Source of the DNA: a virus
Lineage: Duplodnaviria; Heunggongvirae; Uroviricota; Caudoviricetes
Reading direction: 5' to 3' (one strand)
DNA: 13,417 nt
Virus record (IMG/VR): IMGVR_UViG_2526164690_000043
Location: 1 to 13,417 of that record
In this document: positions 1,252 through 9,380 of the stretch, piece after piece
Layout: each line of letters starts with the position of its first letter
Position numbering within the stretch: the stretch's first letter is position 1
Notes under the pieces: model-generated
Seen by the model: only the letters and a program-made list of their open reading frames with translations
What the model was told of the DNA's origin: nothing
Databases searched by the model: none
Position numbers and translations under genes: made by a program

Positions 1252-1313
1252 TGCGGACAACGTGAAACAACGAGACACAACGACGAACAACAAGGAACAA
1301 AATGGAACAACGG
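1252..1313 (+). repeat. Array A: six tandem 10-bp units, each ending in (G)AACAAC (helically phased boxes)
   Basis: ACAAC at 1257-1261, 1267-1271, 1277-1281, 1287-1291 and 1307-1311, plus ACAAA at 1297-1301. The register is exactly 10 bp and the array begins about 20 bp after the int stop. Confidence 0.8.
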
Positions 1314-4665: not shown

Positions 4666-6059
4666 AAAGCGCACCGAACTTAAAAAAACAGCCTTACGAC
4701 AAGATGACCGAAGTCATTATTTTTGCGGGTAGTGATGCCTGGGCACATGCGAAACAGTGGCAGGAACAGGACGGGCGACTGGCTGGCGATAATGTGCCTC
4801 CCGTTGTGCTGGCTGATGATCAACTGGATGAACTGGCAGACCTGAGAATCATCGACGAGGGGCGCTATTGTGTCCGGCTGTACAAGGCAGGCCACATCAG
4901 GCCATCAAATATTAATGCCATTGCGCACAAGCTGGCAGCGGCAGGTGTACAGGATGCGAATTACTACCCCGATGGGATGCACAGCCAGAAGCGGGAGAAC
5001 TGGCGCGAATATCTGGAACGGGAGCGCGGGGAAAAGCAGGAAGAAAAAGGCCACCAGCGCAAAACAAAGCTACCGATGAGCGTTGGTTCTGCCGGATATG
5101 ACACGCAACTGGATTACGTGGTTAAGGGGATTATTCCGGCGGTATCGCTTTGCAGCATATACGGGGCGAGCGGTTCCTATAAATCGTTCCTTGCGGGTTC
5201 GTGGGCGTGTCACGTTTCCACGGGCCGCCAGTGGGGAGGCCGCAGGGTGGCGCATGGCGCTGTTCTCTATGTGGTTGGTGAAGGCGGTATCGGCGTTCCG
5301 CGTCGTGTAAAAGCCTGGGAGGTTGTGCACGGTGAGCAGGTGAAAAATCTTTACCTTGTAAACCGTCCCATCTTTCCGGCTGCCCCGCTTGATGTTGATG
5401 AAATGGTTATCGCTGCCCGTCAGGTGGAGCGGGAAACGGGTAAACCTGTTCGAATGATTATTCTGGATACGCTGGCGCGCTGCTTTGGCGGCAATGATGA
5501 AAATGACTCCCGTGATATGGGGACGTTTATCCGTGGGTGTGACGAACTGAAACGACGCACAGGGGCCACGGTGCTGGTGGTTCACCATTCCGGCAAGGAT
5601 GAGACGAAAGGCGCGCGCGGTTCCAGTGCATTTCGTGCTTCGCTGGATGCTGAATACCGGATACGCAGGGAGGACGCAGGAAGCGAAGCGCTGGTTATCT
5701 CATGCACCAAAATGAAGGACGCGGAGGAACTCAAAGAAGCCGCATATGACTTACGCGTGGTGGAGCTTTTTACCGACGCTGACGGGGAGTTAATCACGTC
5801 GCTGGTGGTGGTGGATAAGCCGCGCCCTCCCGTTGAACTGGAGCGCATCGAGGAGGCAGGGAACAAGACGGAGAATCACGCCGCGCTATGGCAGTGCATC
5901 AGAACACGAACAGCACACGGGGAGGCGTGCACTATCGCCCTTCTCCGCGACGATATGAAAAAGCTGGGGTATGAGATGAAGCACTTCCGGCGCTGGCTGT
6001 ACAAGCTGGAAAATGATGGCGTAATCGTTATTGACGGTGATGACGTGCGCCCGCTGTAA
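4662..6059 (+). CDS. Replication initiator/helicase, RepA-like RecA-fold ATPase (AAA_25 type) with a C-terminal winged-helix-like tail
   Basis: 465 aa. Walker A is YGASGSYKS and Walker B is VRMIILDTLARC. VLVVHHSGKDETKGARGSSA is typical of RepA/DnaB-like AAA_25 proteins. ATGA-coupled to the upstream ORF, and the iteron array begins at its stop codon. Confidence 0.85.
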   Translation: MKSAPNLKKQPYDKMTEVIIFAGSDAWAHAKQWQEQDGRLAGDNVPPVVLADDQLDELADLRIIDEGRYCVRLYKAGHIRPSNINAIAHKLAAAGVQDANYYPDGMHSQKRENWREYLERERGEKQEEKGHQRKTKLPMSVGSAGYDTQLDYVVKGIIPAVSLCSIYGASGSYKSFLAGSWACHVSTGRQWGGRRVAHGAVLYVVGEGGIGVPRRVKAWEVVHGEQVKNLYLVNRPIFPAAPLDVDEMVIAARQVERETGKPVRMIILDTLARCFGGNDENDSRDMGTFIRGCDELKRRTGATVLVVHHSGKDETKGARGSSAFRASLDAEYRIRREDAGSEALVISCTKMKDAEELKEAAYDLRVVELFTDADGELITSLVVVDKPRPPVELERIEEAGNKTENHAALWQCIRTRTAHGEACTIALLRDDMKKLGYEMKHFRRWLYKLENDGVIVIDGDDVRPL

Positions 6060-7246: not shown

Positions 7247-7519
7247 ATGGTACATGACCGCATAGCGGAAGAGCTGGAGGCGAAAGGCTTTTACCGGAGA
7301 GCGTCGGCGCGATGGGGTGAAGTCATGCAGCTGGTGGAGACAGACAAGGAACGGCATCACATCACGATGCGACGGCTGGAATGTTGCAGGAAGGCACAGA
7401 GGCCACCGGAGCCACCGGATAATTACGGAGACCTGAAAAAGGCAGTCGATCGCACTTATGCCGAAATGGGGATAGATGGTGCTGGTGATGAAATATGGCG
7501 CAATTACCAGGACAGCTAA
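7247..7519 (+). CDS. PerC-family transcriptional regulator-like protein
   Basis: MVHDRIAEELEAKGFYRRASARWGEVM matches the PerC/Pch N-terminal signature (A..LE..G.[WY]RRA..RW.EVM). About 90 aa, as is typical. The track start is GTG 7238, but ATG 7247 is preferred. Confidence 0.6.
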   Translation: MVHDRIAEELEAKGFYRRASARWGEVMQLVETDKERHHITMRRLECCRKAQRPPEPPDNYGDLKKAVDRTYAEMGIDGAGDEIWRNYQDS

Positions 7520-7525
7520 TCACAC

Positions 7526-7549
7526 AGCCGGAGAAATCCGGCTTTTTTT
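7526..7549 (+). terminator. Rho-independent terminator T1
   Basis: AGCCGGA-GAAA-TCCGGCT followed by a T-run through 7549, starting 7 nt after the perC-like stop. Confidence 0.8.
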
Positions 7550-7644
7550 GCACCAGTTGAAACGGTATGGCGCATTACCGGGTTTTCGTCACGGTCTGGC
7601 ATAGTTACTATCTGAAACAAACAGACACAACAGAGGAAAAAACA

Positions 7645-7986
7645 ATGCCGATGAAATTTGATGAGATATTAAAACAGCGTGATAAATACCATGCTGACAA
7701 CATGGAGACGATGAGCATCAATGATTACCGCGCATTCCTGGAGACGGGCGCACTGATTGAAAAGGATCAGCATGGTTTTGTGAGATGTGCTCTATCCGGT
7801 GAAATGCTGGCGGTAAATCCTGAACAGATAGATGCATTGATAGAATTTCTGAAAGGGATCAGGACTGAGCACGCATACAGCCGGAGCAATCCGGTCTTTT
7901 TGTCATTTTTTGTAAATTATTTGTTCGTGGTTGTTCCACGTTGTTCACTGACAGGATCGGCATATTTTACCCGAACTGAATCATGA
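7645..7986 (+). CDS. Hypothetical protein; 3' end doubtful because the ORF reads through a terminator-like hairpin
   Basis: ATG at 7645 preceded by AGAGGA. MPMKFDEILKQRDKYHADNMETMSINDYRAFLETGALIEKDQHGFVRCALSGEMLAVNPEQIDALIEFLKG looks coding. The tail (..FLSFFVNYLFVVVPRCSL..) crosses hairpin T2 and repeat array B. One extra G in the G3 run at 7855-7857 would end the protein as ..FLKGDQD* just before T2. Confidence 0.45.
   Translation: MPMKFDEILKQRDKYHADNMETMSINDYRAFLETGALIEKDQHGFVRCALSGEMLAVNPEQIDALIEFLKGIRTEHAYSRSNPVFLSFFVNYLFVVVPRCSLTGSAYFTRTES
7879..7901 (+). terminator. Terminator-like hairpin T2, a near-copy of T1
   Basis: CAGCCGGAGCAATCCGGTCTTTTTG compared with T1 CAGCCGGAGAAATCCGGCTTTTTTTG. 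The stem is shorter (GCCGGA/TCCGGT with a G-U pair) and is followed by CTTTTTGTCATTTTTTG. Confidence 0.5.
7917..7950 (-). repeat. Array B: three 10-bp-phased GAACAA(C) boxes, inverted relative to array A
   Basis: On the + strand, TTGTTC sits at 7921-7926, 7931-7936 and 7941-7946. The minus strand reads GTGAACAACGTGGAACAACCACGAACAAATAA, the same unit and register as 1252-1313. Confidence 0.75.
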
Positions 7987-8022
7987 GTATTCTCGCCCGT
8001 GGTGCCAGGACGCTGGGGCCAC

Positions 8023-8070
8023 TTTCCCGCCTGTTAATGTGCTCGCCAATATTCATTACCAGGCGGGAAA
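8023..8070 (+). promoter_or_regulatory. Perfect 11-bp inverted repeat in the leader of the head operon
   Basis: TTTCCCGCCTG (8023-8033) and CAGGCGGGAAA (8060-8070) are separated by 26 nt. No T-tract follows on either strand, so this is an RNA stem-loop or a protein-binding palindrome rather than a terminator. Confidence 0.55.
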
Positions 8071-8123
8071 ACGATCGGTGCGATTGCTGATTTCCTTATG
8101 AAAAACGGTTGAGTGTTTGCCGC

Positions 8124-8160
8124 GTCCTGGAGTTCCTTACTTAACCCCAGGACTTTTTTT
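8124..8160 (+). terminator. Intrinsic terminator-like hairpin abutting the capsid start codon
   Basis: GTCCTGG (8124-8130) pairs with CCAGGAC (8147-8153), and 8132-8134/8143-8145 can extend the stem. T7 (8154-8160) follows, then ATG at 8161. The only SD-like element for the capsid gene (AGGA, 8149-8152) lies in the 3' arm of the stem. Confidence 0.65.
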
Positions 8161-9318
8161 ATGCCGAGAATAATCGAATTACGCCAGCAGAAAACCGCCA
8201 TTAAAAATCAGATGCGCGACATGCTGGAGAACGCGGAAAAAGAAAACCGCAGTCTTAACGATGCTGAGGGCGCAAAATTTGACGAATTACGCGCTAAAGC
8301 TGAATCCCTCGATAAAGACATTTCCCGCCTTGAAGCCATTGCAGACGAAGAGCGCAGCAAGCCAGGTAAAAGCAGTCAGACCACTGACCCCGCAGAACTA
8401 CGCAACTACATTCTGACAGGTGAAACCCGCGCATTAAGTACAGGCGTTCCCGCTGATGGTGGTTATACCGTTATCCCTGAACTGAACACCGAAATCATGC
8501 GAATGCTGGCGGATGAATCCACCATGCGCCGCATCTGTACCGTGAAGAAAATCAGCAGCAACGAGTTTAAGCAGCTTGTTTCCGCTGGCGGTGCGACCGT
8601 TAACCACGGTGAAGAGGGTAAGGCACGCGAACAGACCAGCCCCCCGCAGATTAACGAGGTGAGCATTAAGCTGTATCCGGTCTATGCGTACCCGCGCACC
8701 ACACAGGAAATCGTGGATTTTTCCGATGTGGACATCCTTTCATGGCTGACGGGTGAGATTGGCGACACCTTCACGGAAACCGAAGAAAGCGATCTGGTTG
8801 TGGGCGACGGTGACAAAAAAGCAAAAGGTTTTTTATCCGTACCCCGTGCAGAGAAGAACGACAAAGAGCGTGATTTTGGTACGTTGCAGGTAATTAAACC
8901 TTCCGAATCTCTGGCGTGGACATCTGCGGACCCGCTGATCGACCTGAAATTTGCATTACGTAAAAATAACCGCAAAAACGCGGTCTGGGTGGTTAACTCC
9001 ACGACGGCGGCAAAACTTCAGAAGGTGAAGAACGCGAACGGTGATTATATCTGGCGCGACCGTTTACAGGCGGGTGATCCTGATACGTTGCTGGGCCTTC
9101 CGGTCGAATATCTGGAGTTTATGCCTGATAACGTTATTGCCCTGGGTGACTTCAAACGCGGTTACTACATTGTTGATCACGAAACAGGTGTTCGCACCAG
9201 ACCGGACAACCTCACAGAGCCGGGCTTCATCAAAATTTTCACGCAGAAATATTTAGGCGGTGGCGTGGTGGATTCGAACGCGATCAAGATTCTGGAACTG
9301 CCACAGGACGACGATTAA
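8161..9318 (+). CDS. Major capsid protein, HK97 fold/family, with an N-terminal coiled-coil delta (scaffolding) domain
   Basis: 385 aa from the ATG at 8161 (the track ORF starts at GTG 8113, inside the leader). The N-terminus IELRQQKTAIKNQMRDMLENAEKENRSLNDAEGAKFDELRAKAESLDKDISRLEAIADEER is typical of HK97-family delta domains. The body carries family-like stretches such as GGYTVIPELNTEIMRML and ..NAVWVVNSTTAAKLQKVKNANGDYIWRD..LLGLPVEY. Confidence 0.92.
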   Translation: MPRIIELRQQKTAIKNQMRDMLENAEKENRSLNDAEGAKFDELRAKAESLDKDISRLEAIADEERSKPGKSSQTTDPAELRNYILTGETRALSTGVPADGGYTVIPELNTEIMRMLADESTMRRICTVKKISSNEFKQLVSAGGATVNHGEEGKAREQTSPPQINEVSIKLYPVYAYPRTTQEIVDFSDVDILSWLTGEIGDTFTETEESDLVVGDGDKKAKGFLSVPRAEKNDKERDFGTLQVIKPSESLAWTSADPLIDLKFALRKNNRKNAVWVVNSTTAAKLQKVKNANGDYIWRDRLQAGDPDTLLGLPVEYLEFMPDNVIALGDFKRGYYIVDHETGVRTRPDNLTEPGFIKIFTQKYLGGGVVDSNAIKILELPQDDD

Positions 9319-9328
9319 CAGCATACAG

Positions 9329-9348
9329 AAGGGGCTTAAAAGCCCCTT
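9329..9348 (+). other. Stem-loop between the capsid and protease genes
   Basis: AAGGGGCT-TAAA-AGCCCCTT, followed by TAGTGTTTTAT (a weak T-tract). It may act as a partial terminator or mRNA-stabilising hairpin that raises capsid output relative to downstream genes. Confidence 0.5.
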
Positions 9349-9380
9349 TAGTGTTTTATGGGTGAAAAATTATGAAGAGT

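Follow-up and report, generated by a model that had tools for sequence, protein, structure and literature searches.

Genomic Context of the Capsid Operon

The window, i.e., the whole stretch of 13,417 nt of DNA analyzed here, is a capsid-forming PICI (cf-PICI) of the EcCIEDL933 type, a family of islands described previously (10.1101/2022.09.08.507074). It shares 98.4–99.7% identity with EDL933 and RM8385; the RM8385 copy sits between roxA and phoQ and carries genes for int, HTH/AlpA, RepA helicase, capsid, protease, portal, connectors, HNH, TerS and TerL. As is characteristic for cf-PICIs, the island combines int, alpA and rep with a complete HK97-type capsid/packaging module at a chromosomal site, and it possesses neither tail nor lysis genes. 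The packaging operon opens with the major capsid gene (Table 1), and the alignment of 10 capsid homologues, in which Met1 is invariant, identified the ATG at 8161 as its true start. In relatives, the ORF upstream of the capsid promoter stops at approximately 7868, and the terminator scan detected an intrinsic terminator closing the early (replication/regulation) operon. Many E. coli matches start at approximately 7874–7877 or stop at approximately 7901, which indicates a module boundary at this site. The ORF 7567–7986, overlapping the 5' part of the leader as first annotated, was dismissed because its 3' extension is due to a 1-nt deletion peculiar to the window.

Table 1. Coordinates of the features at and around the capsid-gene leader (positions in the window).
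Feature	Position	Strand	Description
Second TTGTTC-type repeat array	1257..1310	-	10-bp period; int-alpA intergenic region
Intrinsic terminator closing the early operon	7880..7900	+	hairpin 7880-7895, then T-run
Upstream cassette	7908..7946	+	box TTTTGTAAATTAT (7908-7920) and three TTGTTC direct repeats (7921, 7931, 7941)
Predicted sigma-70 promoter	7966..7993	+	-35 TTTACC 7966-7971, 16-nt spacer, -10 TATTCT 7988-7993
H1, 5'-terminal hairpin	7999..8022	+	GUGGU-G-CCAG-GACG-CUGG-G-GCCAC; holds segment A, 8005-8013, CCAGGACGC
H2, long hairpin	8023..8070	+	arms 8023-8033/8060-8070, inner stem 8035-8039/8054-8058, apical loop 8040-8053
Antisense block 1 (H2 loop)	8034..8058	+	23/25 nt, including a perfect 16-mer, complementary to AUG (Met193) and following codons
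Small weak hairpin	8073..8092	+	from folding; within a segment confined to the window leader type
Antisense block 2	8091..8111	+	21/21 nt complementary to the SD-like AAGGA region upstream of Met193; contains the mini-ORF
Segment B	8122..8130	+	GCGUCCUGG; pairs with A 8005-8013 (9 bp) or, via 8124-8130, with segment C 8147-8153
Terminal hairpin and U7 (putative intrinsic terminator)	8124..8160	+	arms 8124-8130/8147-8153, inner pairs 8132-8134/8143-8145, U7 8154-8160
Major capsid gene, HK97 type	8161..9318	+	opens the packaging operon

Promoter and Upstream Repeats

Comparison of 90 unique related upstream regions revealed a -35 element TTTAC and a -10 element TATcTT, both at a constant spacing from the first base of H1, the 5'-terminal hairpin of the leader. 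In the position-by-position analysis, TTT at -33 to -31 was conserved in 88–90 of the 90 regions, and all of them carry T, A and T as first, second and sixth base of the -10 hexamer; the spacer between both elements was unconserved except for its T-richness. The sigma-70 promoter predicted from this family conservation places the transcription start most likely at approximately 7999–8001, giving a leader of approximately 160 nt. The leader of approximately 210 nt starting at 7951 that had been proposed in the first-pass annotation is thus probably too long, since approximately 48 nt of it, 7951–7998, are most likely promoter DNA and not leader. In the related locus L004, another upstream module with a near-consensus promoter (TTGCGA-N16-TATAAT) is joined exactly at the first base of H1.

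Upstream of the promoter, a cassette in which the TTGTTC repeats follow an exact 10-bp period is presumed to be an activator binding array. Its position is constant in the 90 unique upstream regions (-89 to -51), and it is 89–91% identical in cf-PICIs with a diverged leader and capsid. The second TTGTTC-type array on the opposite strand comprises eight matches as compared to 1.6 expected, a count reached by none of 200 shuffles. Only in islands close to the window does the array near alpA stand out clearly; in islands farther from it, this region is noisy or has different, GTTCAT-type arrays.

Structure and Conservation of the Leader RNA

The capsid gene is preceded by a genuine structured leader RNA that belongs to a conserved, undescribed family. 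RNAfold z-scores of −5.35 for 7951–8175 and −5.13 for 7999–8175 were obtained, with none of 200 shuffles folding equally well in either case, in agreement with the structured leader that had been proposed before. Likewise, the 11-bp inverted repeat, the GC-rich hairpin, the T7 tract and the capsid ATG at 8161 all lie where the first-pass annotation had placed them. H1 folds with a ΔG of −15.6. In H2, 8023–8033 (TTTCCCGCCTG) is the perfect reverse complement of 8060–8070 (CAGGCGGGAAA); the inverted-repeat search, in which this repeat ranked top of nine in the 13.4-kb window, lengthened the arms to 17 nt (8023–8039/8054–8070) with 94% complementarity. The small hairpin that follows H2 is missing from other leader types. 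A mini-ORF of four codons, MKNG (ATG 8098 to TGA 8110–8112), was considered as a leader peptide and rejected, as it lacks a Shine-Dalgarno (SD) sequence and is lineage-specific; no leader ORF is conserved.

The collection of related leaders comprises 123 loci with 68 unique sequences, all of them preceding homologous capsid genes and most of them located on IMG/VR viral contigs; the non-viral members originate from genomes of Escherichia, Shigella, Citrobacter, Erwinia and Rosenbergiella. These leaders have a common layout of the 5' hairpin H1, the long H2 and a last hairpin (H3) hiding the SD. In 60 relatives, the H1 equivalent is 99.8% paired, with three compensatory pairs, and its variants are G-U compatible on the leader strand. 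In the outer stem of H2, nine of 10 pairs are altered on both sides with 95.3% of cells paired; sequence, length and branching of H2 vary freely, and single-base variants give rise to sense-strand G-U pairs. The values observed for the whole H1+H2+H3 structure were reached by none of 500 shuffles, and slid-partner controls were also far off. This pattern of change in the sequences indicates that the RNA structure of the family is under selection.

Family model R1 aligns to H1 and H2 of the window. The model of the majority type misses the window with default filters; with filters off, it recovers H1+H2 only, at 25.9 bits, and wrongly assigns the ATG of the mini-ORF as capsid start. Searches against Rfam yielded no matches at E ≤ 1 in the window and only spurious miRNA matches elsewhere in five related loci.

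Terminal Hairpin, Buried SD and the Antitermination Hypothesis

The last hairpin of the window leader, formed by pairing of GTCCTGG (8124–8130) with CCAGGAC (8147–8153), has a ΔG of −12.7 kcal/mol and pair probabilities of at least 0.99. Its stem of 7 bp, five of which are G-C, is extended by three inner pairs, and the U7 tract begins at the base after the stem, so that it shows the GC-rich stem and the U-tract of at least six residues of an intrinsic terminator. Loops of intrinsic terminators typically comprise 3–8 nt, whereas here 16 nt lie between the main arms, or 8 nt if the three inner pairs form, and at 16 nt the hairpin departs from the short loop of such terminators. This is also the reason why it was missed by the simple terminator scan, which allows loops of up to 8 nt. 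From this anatomy we infer that transcription would stop at U7. The only SD-like motif, AGGA (8149–8152), lies within the 3' arm of the hairpin, as had been read directly from the sequence in the first-pass annotation.

The T-run (T7–T8) is kept in all eight unique leaders of the window type and in 14 further variants; compensatory double changes in the terminator stem were not found among the 14 natural variants. As compared to eight of eight window-type leaders, none of the 59 others has a T-run. Burial of the SD is general across leaders, with a mean P(unpaired) of 0.15–0.22. Since the T-run is lineage-restricted and SD burial general, the conserved function appears to be translational gating, with termination as an add-on. 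The earlier proposal that head-gene expression is held off by termination and/or SD occlusion therefore stands with respect to the hidden SD and the terminator anatomy in the window; termination is not, however, a conserved feature of the family.

The late operon of lambda is controlled by the promoter PR', the 6S RNA, the terminator tR' and the antiterminator Q. By analogy to PR'/tR', a Q-like factor of the island or the helper could load at the promoter and carry the polymerase through U7. The arrangement of promoter, approximately 160-nt leader and terminator before the first late gene indeed resembles PR'-6S-tR', further terminator-like sites are present in the co-oriented gene string (7526–7543, 7880–7895 and 9328–9349), and induction requires alpA. 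However, such protein-mediated processive antitermination is unlikely here. No antiterminator gene, including any of the Q family, is annotated in the island, and neither Q-binding nor pause elements were found at the promoter, where the -35/-10 spacer is unconserved as described above. AlpA belongs to the excisionase-type Pfam family Phage_AlpA, and its sole match in the PDB at E ≤ 1 is 8c3t_A, named AlpA family phage regulatory protein; the name shared with AlpA of P. aeruginosa, which had been considered as a model, was dropped as evidence. Moreover, the terminator is absent from 59 of 59 other leaders sharing the promoter cassette, and antitermination leaves the conserved complementarity between H1 and segment B, described below, unexplained. 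The antiterminator that the first-pass annotation expected from either the island or the helper thus finds no annotated candidate gene in the island, and the visible release element lies in the RNA itself.

[quoted passage not shown] Capsid formation without helper induction speaks against such antitermination, and it does not agree with the leader being a sensor of helper infection, as had been supposed earlier. Basal capsid production without helper fits a leaky gate.

Competing Folds and the Proposed Switch

Segment A in H1 and segment B in the 5' arm of the last hairpin are perfectly complementary over 9 nt (P = 0.0012 in 5000 dinucleotide shuffles). Pairing of A with B excludes pairing of B with C, and the terminator fold consequently has a rival of the anti-terminator/anti-sequestor kind. 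The alternative RNA fold suggested in the first-pass annotation was thereby found in the form of the exclusive helix 8005–8013:8122–8130, which recurs with different sequences in relatives. In prefixes that end at 8131–8140, the A:B helix gives the lowest energy. Complementarity between H1 and the last hairpin's 5' arm holds throughout the family: in the 60 relatives, a 12-pair helix between the 3' half of H1 and the 5' arm of H3 is 98.3% paired as compared to 92.8% for the SD hairpin, and eight of its 12 pairs are invariant, one compensatory and one G-U change being observed. The window type and the majority type use different registers of the competing helix, and the helix persists where the last hairpin is rebuilt, as in the L002 type and the window type; in L148 it changes in step, from U-A to G-C and from A-U to G-U. 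In most relatives, H1 and segment B hardly vary, and the covariation of the competing helix comes from three to four lineages (majority, L002 type, L148 and window type). Changes of this kind are also the pattern expected of co-evolving DNA sites.

The energy balance between both folds shifts as the transcript grows. Before the 3' arm is made, the difference between the alternative fold and H1 has a median of −0.35 kcal/mol in the 68 leaders (−0.4 kcal/mol in the window), whereas for the full leader it amounts to a median of +6.4 kcal/mol (+11.2 kcal/mol in the window). Structures, conservation, competing complementarity and energy balance were all established by computation. Because the folds are energy-matched at the decision point and the closed fold of the window is better by approximately 11 kcal/mol later, the outcome would be set kinetically during transcription, and which fold wins in vivo we infer from this balance.

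Following this, we propose that RNA made from the activator-type promoter folds H1 first and H2 thereafter. Emerging segment B would then use the H1 loop GACG as a toehold, invade H1 and pair with A, which would leave AGGA free and block the terminator. Alternatively, B would wait and pair with C, forming the hairpin-U7 terminator and burying the SD. Read-through transcripts without quick ribosome loading would relax to the closed form. The balance might be shifted by the elongation rate, by a protein acting on the near-invariant H1, or by the conserved phrog_1957 protein encoded just upstream. Taken together, we consider it probable, at roughly 0.58, that the promoter and the approximately 160-nt leader constitute a leaky, tunable gate on transcription and translation of the capsid gene and not an on/off helper sensor. 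With respect to a fold-selecting signal, neither a conserved leader ORF nor, in the window and five related loci, an Rfam aptamer was found. At equilibrium, the closed fold wins by 6–11 kcal/mol, yet capsid protein is needed in bulk; a factor that helps opening may therefore be required.

The elements of the leader could also be merely passive: H1 and H2 would stabilize the 5' end of the mRNA, the hairpin-U7 would be a constitutively leaky terminator or insulator, and the complementarity would be without function. Hairpins at the 5' end often protect mRNAs, and no trigger of the proposed switch was found. Moreover, some related islands have the same promoter followed by a short, nearly unstructured leader, which implies that the switch is dispensable for a working capsid operon. 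Despite this, we regard a passive role as improbable, because the H1 loop and its complement are near-invariant across genera where H2 drifts, the complementarity survives rebuilding of the last hairpin, its chance probability is low in the window alone (the P value of 0.0012 given above), and in 68 leaders both alternatives are about equal in energy when the decision falls.

Alternatively, control might be exerted at the DNA level, with H1 as a palindromic operator at +1 to +24 and B as a second copy of its core approximately 100 bp downstream, both bound by one repressor. The start site coincides with a near-perfect palindrome, H1, whose central 8–9 bp recur in inverted form in B, and both sites co-vary between lineages. 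It is nonetheless very improbable that this accounts for the conservation: the distance from the H1 loop to B varies from 75 to 119 bp without helical phasing, B always copies the non-palindromic center in the orientation required for RNA pairing, the departures are G-U-compatible transitions (L148, loop GGCG versus CGUC; L139; L153), and H2, located between both sites, clearly forms an RNA helix that includes G-U pairs on the sense strand.

The put RNA of phage HK022 consists of two hairpins and makes its own polymerase terminator-resistant. H1 and H2 could similarly bind their own polymerase, so that U7 and later terminators are read through in a protein-free manner, and they are indeed two stem-loops located directly after the start and upstream of terminators. 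We give this option hardly any credence, since H2 is free to vary in sequence, length and branching, since the leader of most relatives lacks a terminator, and since both the H1-B complementarity and SD burial would be unexplained. In addition, model R1 had no match in the HK022 genome (E ≤ 10, default filters), which is a weak test. The kinetic gate formed by the A:B and B:C pairings is our preferred reading.

Complementarity to a Prophage Capsid Gene

Two blocks of the window leader are antisense to the protease-capsid fusion gene of Stx-type and other lambdoid prophages (Table 1). The two target stretches are 7 nt apart in the phage and cover AAGGA-N10-AUG in frame; the AUG, Met193, lies where the S78 protease domain (residues 48–153) borders on the coiled-coil/capsid part (189–210 and 386–635). 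BLAST detected 1,161 E. coli genomes with any match, a large share of which join both pieces on 'phage major capsid protein', and 797 records fall in the 90–95% identity band of the two-piece match; in EDL933, six places match, one of them being the leader itself. The duplexes between leader and target were calculated at −28.5 and −30.8 kcal/mol, and P(unpaired) was 0.97 for the apical loop of H2 and 0.62 on average for block 2. As in antisense sRNAs, extended complementarity to a predicted translation initiation region is thus offered by accessible parts of the leader. Duplex energies of the whole leader with the phage region were uninformative, because giant artificial duplexes arose throughout. 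The terminator and the antisense blocks occur together only in the window leader type, and for other leader types no antisense matches were found in the phage collection.

Hence, the leader might have a dual function. The terminated RNA of approximately 160 nt would be a trans-acting antisense sRNA blocking the ribosome binding site and AUG of Met193, so that prophage capsid synthesis is lowered while the satellite makes its own capsid; the terminator would primarily be the 3' end of an sRNA gene, and the read-through form would serve as mRNA leader of the satellite capsid gene, which is compatible with the switch acting in cis. Such a role is suggested by the near-perfect pairing of both blocks and their spacing in the phage, by the wide distribution of the two-piece match in E. 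coli prophage capsid genes, by the antisense orientation of the leader strand, by the position of the target at the domain boundary, by the strong duplexes of accessible segments and by the co-occurrence of terminator and blocks solely in the window type. Moreover, the L004 leader lies behind a near-consensus promoter, and the terminated late leader StxS acting as an sRNA provides a precedent (PMC7547250).

Nevertheless, this function is to be regarded as tentative, and we consider it possible but not probable. Use of the internal AUG is deduced; annotations give a single product of 645 aa, and the match might be left over from recombination. Conservation of the blocks does not exceed that of the remaining leader, and the natural variant L153/L218 is mismatched in both of them. 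In the EHEC Hfq cross-linking table, no EcOnc entry is labeled SpLE2, which we take to be the name of this island in strain Sakai; sites at most 100 bp from genes were omitted from that screen. Esr41, a candidate from the EHEC sRNA catalogues, was discarded as it is located in SpLE1. Furthermore, EcCIEDL933 left the titre of the tested helpers HK106 and HK446 unreduced; neither phage is among the target-matching phage records listed (30 of 33).

Comparison With Known Systems

The organization described here resembles late control in lambda and Stx phages in that a promoter and a leader of 160–260 nt precede a predicted intrinsic terminator just before the late or structural genes. As predicted for the satellite leader, these phages also give rise to a short terminated by-product RNA with a possible function in trans; in Stx phages, the terminated leader is the sRNA StxS (PMC7547250). 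Unlike in these phages, neither a Q-like gene nor Q-binding or pause elements were found in the satellite, and the candidate release is an RNA fold; moreover, the satellite hairpin also hides the SD and touches the ATG, and its terminator is lineage-specific. With attenuators and riboswitch platforms, the leader shares segments A, B and C, the choice between A:B and the B:C terminator/sequestor, and a decision during transcription. It differs from them in having no recognizable leader peptide, tRNA, ligand aptamer or Rfam match, and in that the anti-terminator strand is itself locked in the 5' hairpin with the loop as toehold.

The hok mRNA forms metastable 5' hairpins and is inhibited by a fold-back structure hiding the SD. 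As in hok, 5'-terminal and SD-proximal structures of the satellite leader swap partners, nascent and full-length folds differ, and refolding would set translation. In contrast to hok, no antisense partner or 3' processing signal is known for the satellite leader, the gene encodes a capsid protein and not a toxin, and there is no homology. In P4 immunity, CI RNA pairs with seqA/seqC, which leads to premature termination. As proposed for the window leader, termination in P4 thus depends on RNA-RNA pairing, either within a leader or against it; however, pairing in P4 causes termination in trans on its own early transcript, whereas pairing in the leader described here would prevent it in cis, and no sequence or Rfam similarity exists between both RNAs.

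In PLE satellites, the capsid repressor is the protein CapR. Downregulation of the helper capsid by PLEs has been described for Vibrio cholerae (PMC7567579). If the leader indeed acts as an antisense RNA, the island would similarly be a satellite lowering expression of a helper-type capsid gene; unlike in PLE, the proposed effector is an RNA acting on translation initiation and not a DNA-binding protein.

Significance

The cf-PICIs were first described in 2022–23 (10.1101/2022.09.08.507074), and in the cf-PICI and satellite literature searched, no promoter, terminator or RNA element for control of the packaging operon was found. The present analysis contributes a promoter cassette, a conserved leader family present at more than 120 loci without an Rfam match, and a testable switch model. 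A leaky kinetic gate would allow basal production of capsids without helper, whereas a helper-triggered lock would not. If the antisense function holds true, the leader would additionally be an RNA weapon of a head-building satellite against the heads of co-resident or incoming phages, leaving their tails available, and would represent, to our knowledge, the first case of a satellite interfering by means of RNA with the synthesis of helper-type capsids; a further implication would be that a very common prophage capsid gene has an internal start missing from its annotation.

Genomic setting of the leader

Over the 1.2 kb around the leader, the window shares 98-99.7% identity with chromosomal islands of E. 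coli O157:H7 EDL933, O103 RM8385 and many further strains. The RM8385 island lies between roxA and phoQ and carries int, an AlpA-type regulator, RepA helicase, SSB and a PerC-family regulator; next come capsid, protease, portal, connectors, HNH, TerS and TerL, all of them on one strand. The window island is the capsid-forming PICI EcCIEDL933, described in 10.1101/2022.09.08.507074, and the leader is located between its last early gene and the capsid gene. In relatives, this early gene ends at about 7868, directly before the early-operon terminator. In the window, a 1-nt deletion (relative to RM8385), which may reflect a true mutation or an error in sequencing, removes its stop codon, and the frameshifted ORF gains 39 codons that extend across the terminator, box and promoter as far as 7986.

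The gene immediately ahead of the capsid promoter cassette in many, not all, islands (the window; related locus L002, 5730-5978; many viral-contig loci) codes for phrog_1957, a small protein without known function (motif ..HxGF.R..SGE..A...EQ.D.LI..L..), which is a candidate for a late regulator or for a factor that binds the leader. The gene two positions upstream of the promoter differs among islands: the window has a PerC-family activator, of the family of the EPEC/EHEC LEE regulators, and loci L002 (5197-5739) and L003 have a ProQ/FinO-family RNA chaperone in the same accessory slot. Within the packaging operon, a strong terminator-like hairpin directly after the capsid gene presumably sets the capsid-to-downstream protein ratio.

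Features of the leader region and related sites in the window
Feature	Position	Remarks
Hexamer array, int-alpA	1257-1310 (minus strand)	TTGTTC type, 10-bp period
PerC-family gene	7247-7519	
phrog_1957 gene	7645-7868	7645-7986 with frameshift
ORF overlapping the promoter	7567-7986	last 39 codons peculiar to window
1-nt deletion	near 7864	
Early-operon terminator	7880-7895	
Hexamer array, capsid promoter	7921-7946	TTGTTC type, 10-bp period
Box TTTGTAAATTAT	-89 to -77 from first H1 base	common to 90 regions
Three T-rich repeats		10-11 bp period; common to 90 regions
Predicted promoter	7951-7998	
-35 TTTACC	7966-7971	family TTTAC, -33 to -29; TTT in 88-90 of 90
-10 TATTCT	7988-7993	family TATcTT, -11 to -6; positions 1, 2, 6 invariant, 90/90
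Predicted start	7999-8001	
5' hairpin H1	7999-8022	
Segment A	8005-8013	CCAGGACGC
Long hairpin H2	8023-8070	8023-8033 and 8060-8070 perfect complements
Antisense block 1	8034-8058	whole H2 loop
Antisense block 2	8091-8111	
Mini-ORF	8098-8112	ATG AAA AAC GGT TGA (MKNG)
Segment B	8122-8130	GCGUCCUGG
Terminator 5' arm	8124-8130	GTCCTGG
Terminator 3' arm	8147-8153	CCAGGAC
SD-like AGGA	8149-8152	
T7	8154-8160	
Capsid ATG	8161	conserved protein start
Hairpin after capsid gene	9328-9349	9 pairs, T-run

Promoter cassette

Related leaders were gathered in IMG/VR by a DNA pattern for H1 as well as by a degenerate pattern for the capsid N-terminus, and further ones by capsid protein searches of genomes and IMG/VR; 90 distinct upstream regions were then aligned on the first base of H1. 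Because the -35 and -10 elements of the window fit the conserved promoter positions, the RNA start is predicted at 7999-8001. A naturally recombinant locus, L004 of E. coli JNEC-KY176 (about 5940-6000), has a different module, TTGCGA-N16-TATAAT, joined exactly at this first base of H1, so that the window-type leader is kept while the box/repeat promoter is replaced; its near-consensus promoter would produce the terminated leader constitutively. Promoter conservation and the L004 junction together indicate that 7951-7998, which the first-pass annotation had counted as leader, is promoter, and that the leader is probably only about 160 nt long.

The two TTGTTC-type arrays are the only perfectly periodic hexamer arrays in the window, and the one between int and alpA has 8 matches as compared to 1.6 expected. 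This suggests that one DNA-binding regulator serves both, a link that is unproven since the int-alpA arrays of more distant islands differ, being of the GTTCAT type. Control by induction more likely acts at the promoter cassette. The same cassette is found in AT-rich islands (L140, L145, L146, L150, L183, L240-L274) and at L253, L256, L259 and L264, where it drives leaders of two further classes: the first has only about 35 nt and hardly any structure, and the second has about 140 nt and an alternative pairing of its own among three segments, CAUGUAGG / CCUGCAUG / CCUACAUGCAG, adjoining the SD.

A conserved leader RNA with a buried ribosome binding site

Direct reading of the sequence placed all elements where they had been annotated, and the described anatomy, a terminator touching the capsid ATG with the sole SD-like motif in its 3' arm, was borne out. 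With arms that can be extended to 17 nt, the first inverted repeat is the top-ranked of the nine found in the window, the region folded with much lower energy than shuffled controls (z = -5.35 for 7951-8175; z = -5.13 for 7999-8175), and the terminal hairpin (-12.7 kcal/mol) forms with a probability of at least 0.99 in the full leader. The mini-ORF inside antisense block 2 has no SD; the family covariance model took its ATGAAA for the start of the capsid gene, which makes it a possible remnant of an earlier such start.

The plan of H1 at the 5' end, H2, and a last hairpin (H3) adjoining the ATG is shared by 123 loci (68 unique leaders), the majority on IMG/VR viral contigs and a few in genomes of Escherichia, Shigella, Citrobacter, Erwinia and Rosenbergiella. 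Among 60 aligned leaders of other than the window type, H2 is 95% paired while nine of ten pairs vary on both sides (one pair, e.g., is U-A in 28 and C-G in 24), and pairing of H1, which has compensatory changes at three pairs, reaches 99.8%. The values for the whole structure were reached by none of 500 shuffles, and slid-partner controls were far off too. Where single bases vary, the result on the sense strand is a G-U pair, which indicates that the structure resides in RNA from this strand. Rfam searches with the window and five related loci returned no matching family, and a covariance model derived from these 60 leaders aligned to H1 and H2 of the window at 25.9 bits with filters off. The leader is real, more than a chance fold, and belongs to a conserved RNA family without an Rfam match.

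Burial of the SD within the last hairpin is family-wide, its mean unpaired probability being 0.15 for other types and 0.22 for the window type, whereas the T-run is confined to the latter: 7-8 T in 8/8 window-type leaders, retained in 14 further variants, against 0-3 T in 59/59 others. From this distribution, the ancestral function is SD sequestration, and the terminator an addition in the EDL933-type lineage. Types without the T-run carry a C-rich, G-poor tract, CCUCCCCUCCAAGCG and variants, after H2 (majority type, e.g., locus L006, 2945-2960), which could be a Rho entry site replacing the intrinsic terminator.

A competing fold and its proposed role

Throughout the family, H1 contains the complement of the last hairpin's 5' arm. 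In the window, segment A pairs with segment B, which contains the terminator 5' arm, and the terminator 3' arm is an exact copy of 8005-8011; this pairing competes with the terminator and gives substance to the alternative RNA fold proposed earlier. Perfect complementarity of H1 over 9 nt to the following 90 nt arose in 0.12% of dinucleotide shuffles. In the majority type, the H1 loop and 3' half form a 12-pair helix with the H3 5' arm that is 98.3% paired, as compared to 92.8% for H3 itself (60 sequences). Complementarity is kept where H3 has been rebuilt (L002 type and window type), and in locus L148 both partners change in step from U-A to G-C, and a loop A to G change gives G-U. The invariant core, GACG in the H1 loop against CGUC, would provide a toehold for strand invasion. 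The same repeats could be read as DNA operators, but their spacing ranges from 75 to 119 bp with no phasing and their deviations are G-U compatible, which makes this reading unlikely.

Folding of growing transcripts showed the alternative helix as minimum-energy fold once B has emerged and before the 3' arm is made, the two states then differing by a median of -0.35 kcal/mol among 68 leaders (window, -0.4); in full leaders, H1 plus the closed hairpin is favoured by 6.4 kcal/mol (window, +11.2). This modelled profile is that of a co-transcriptional, kinetically decided switch. We propose that the polymerase starts at about 8000 and that H1 and H2 fold, after which transcripts would be partitioned in vivo between two fates. 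Either B invades H1 via its loop, so that no terminator forms, the SD is free and the capsid operon would be transcribed and translated, or B stays free until the 3' arm emerges, and the hairpin with U7 would cause termination, with the SD closed in read-through molecules. The gate would be leaky by design, and it might be modulated by any binder of the near-invariant H1 or by the phrog_1957 protein. We give this cis-acting switch a probability of about 0.6.

The mechanism of the first-pass annotation was therefore half right: the anatomy and the alternative fold stand, whereas the analogy to lambda Q antitermination and the role as sensor of helper infection are rejected because the island has no annotated antiterminator gene, its AlpA belongs to the excisionase-type Phage_AlpA proteins (8c3t_A, named AlpA family phage regulatory protein, is the single PDB chain that it matches at E<=1), conservation is lacking in the promoter spacer, the terminator is missing from most relatives, and capsids are made without helper (10.1101/2025.02.11.637232).

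Antisense relation to prophage capsid genes

Comparison with a phage collection revealed opposite-strand matches of block 2, a perfect 21-mer (21/21 nt; E = 0.9 on its own), to 33 Stx-converting and related lambdoid phages, the leader strand being antisense to the prophage gene. On inspection, block 1 also proved to match, at 23/25 nt, including a perfect 16-mer; the blocks are 7 nt apart in the phage vs 32 nt in the leader. BLAST against all complete E. coli genomes found both pieces joined on 'phage major capsid protein'. Some match is present in 1,161 genomes, among them 359 with the leader itself; the two-piece match recurs across a large share of these genomes, and its 90-95% identity band comprises 797 records. 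EDL933 has six match places, one being the leader. The target, CAACCGUUUUUCAUAAGGAA-AAGACCA-UAAUGAAUAUUGGCGAACAGAUUAA (2966-3021 in L137, phage BP-4795, and also in L138), has AAGGA and, 10 nt later, an in-frame AUG (Met193) internal to a 645-aa protease-capsid fusion gene, where the S78 prohead-protease domain (residues 48-153) gives way to the coiled-coil (189-210) and capsid (386-635) domains. If Met193 is the internal start for an abundant scaffold-capsid product, the leader would cover its SD and start codon; such a nested arrangement would recall lambda C/Nu3. Contact would use the most accessible leader parts, with an unpaired probability of 0.97 for the H2 apical loop and duplex energies of -28.5 and -30.8 kcal/mol.

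That the terminated leader acts in trans as an antisense RNA on the Met193 start region is a tentative reading, and we consider it rather doubtful. Antisense blocks and a terminator that would set free a discrete RNA occur together only in this leader type, but the internal start is not annotated, one natural variant is mismatched in both blocks, and the match may be left over from recombination. No sign of expression was found: an EHEC Hfq-site table, from which sites <=100 bp from genes are excluded, has no entry labelled SpLE2, which we take to be the name of the island in strain Sakai. EcCIEDL933 does not reduce the titres of the tested helpers HK106 and HK446, and neither phage is among the target-match records listed (30 of 33).

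Comparison with known systems

In layout, the capsid leader is closest to lambda PR'-6S-tR' and its Stx-phage form StxS (PMC7547250), but no Q-type factor or site was found. In logic, it is closest to terminator/antiterminator attenuators and the hok mRNA refolding pathway; unlike attenuators, it has no leader peptide, aptamer or Rfam match, and it shows no homology to hok or the other systems to which it is likened. It is not a member of the lambda PR', StxS, attenuator or hok systems and is best classed as a new cis-regulatory leader RNA family, in which a familiar type of device appears in a new setting and to which the window lineage adds a terminator and possibly a trans-acting function. 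The weight of the finding lies mainly in the conserved switch architecture and in the antisense relation to prophage capsid genes.
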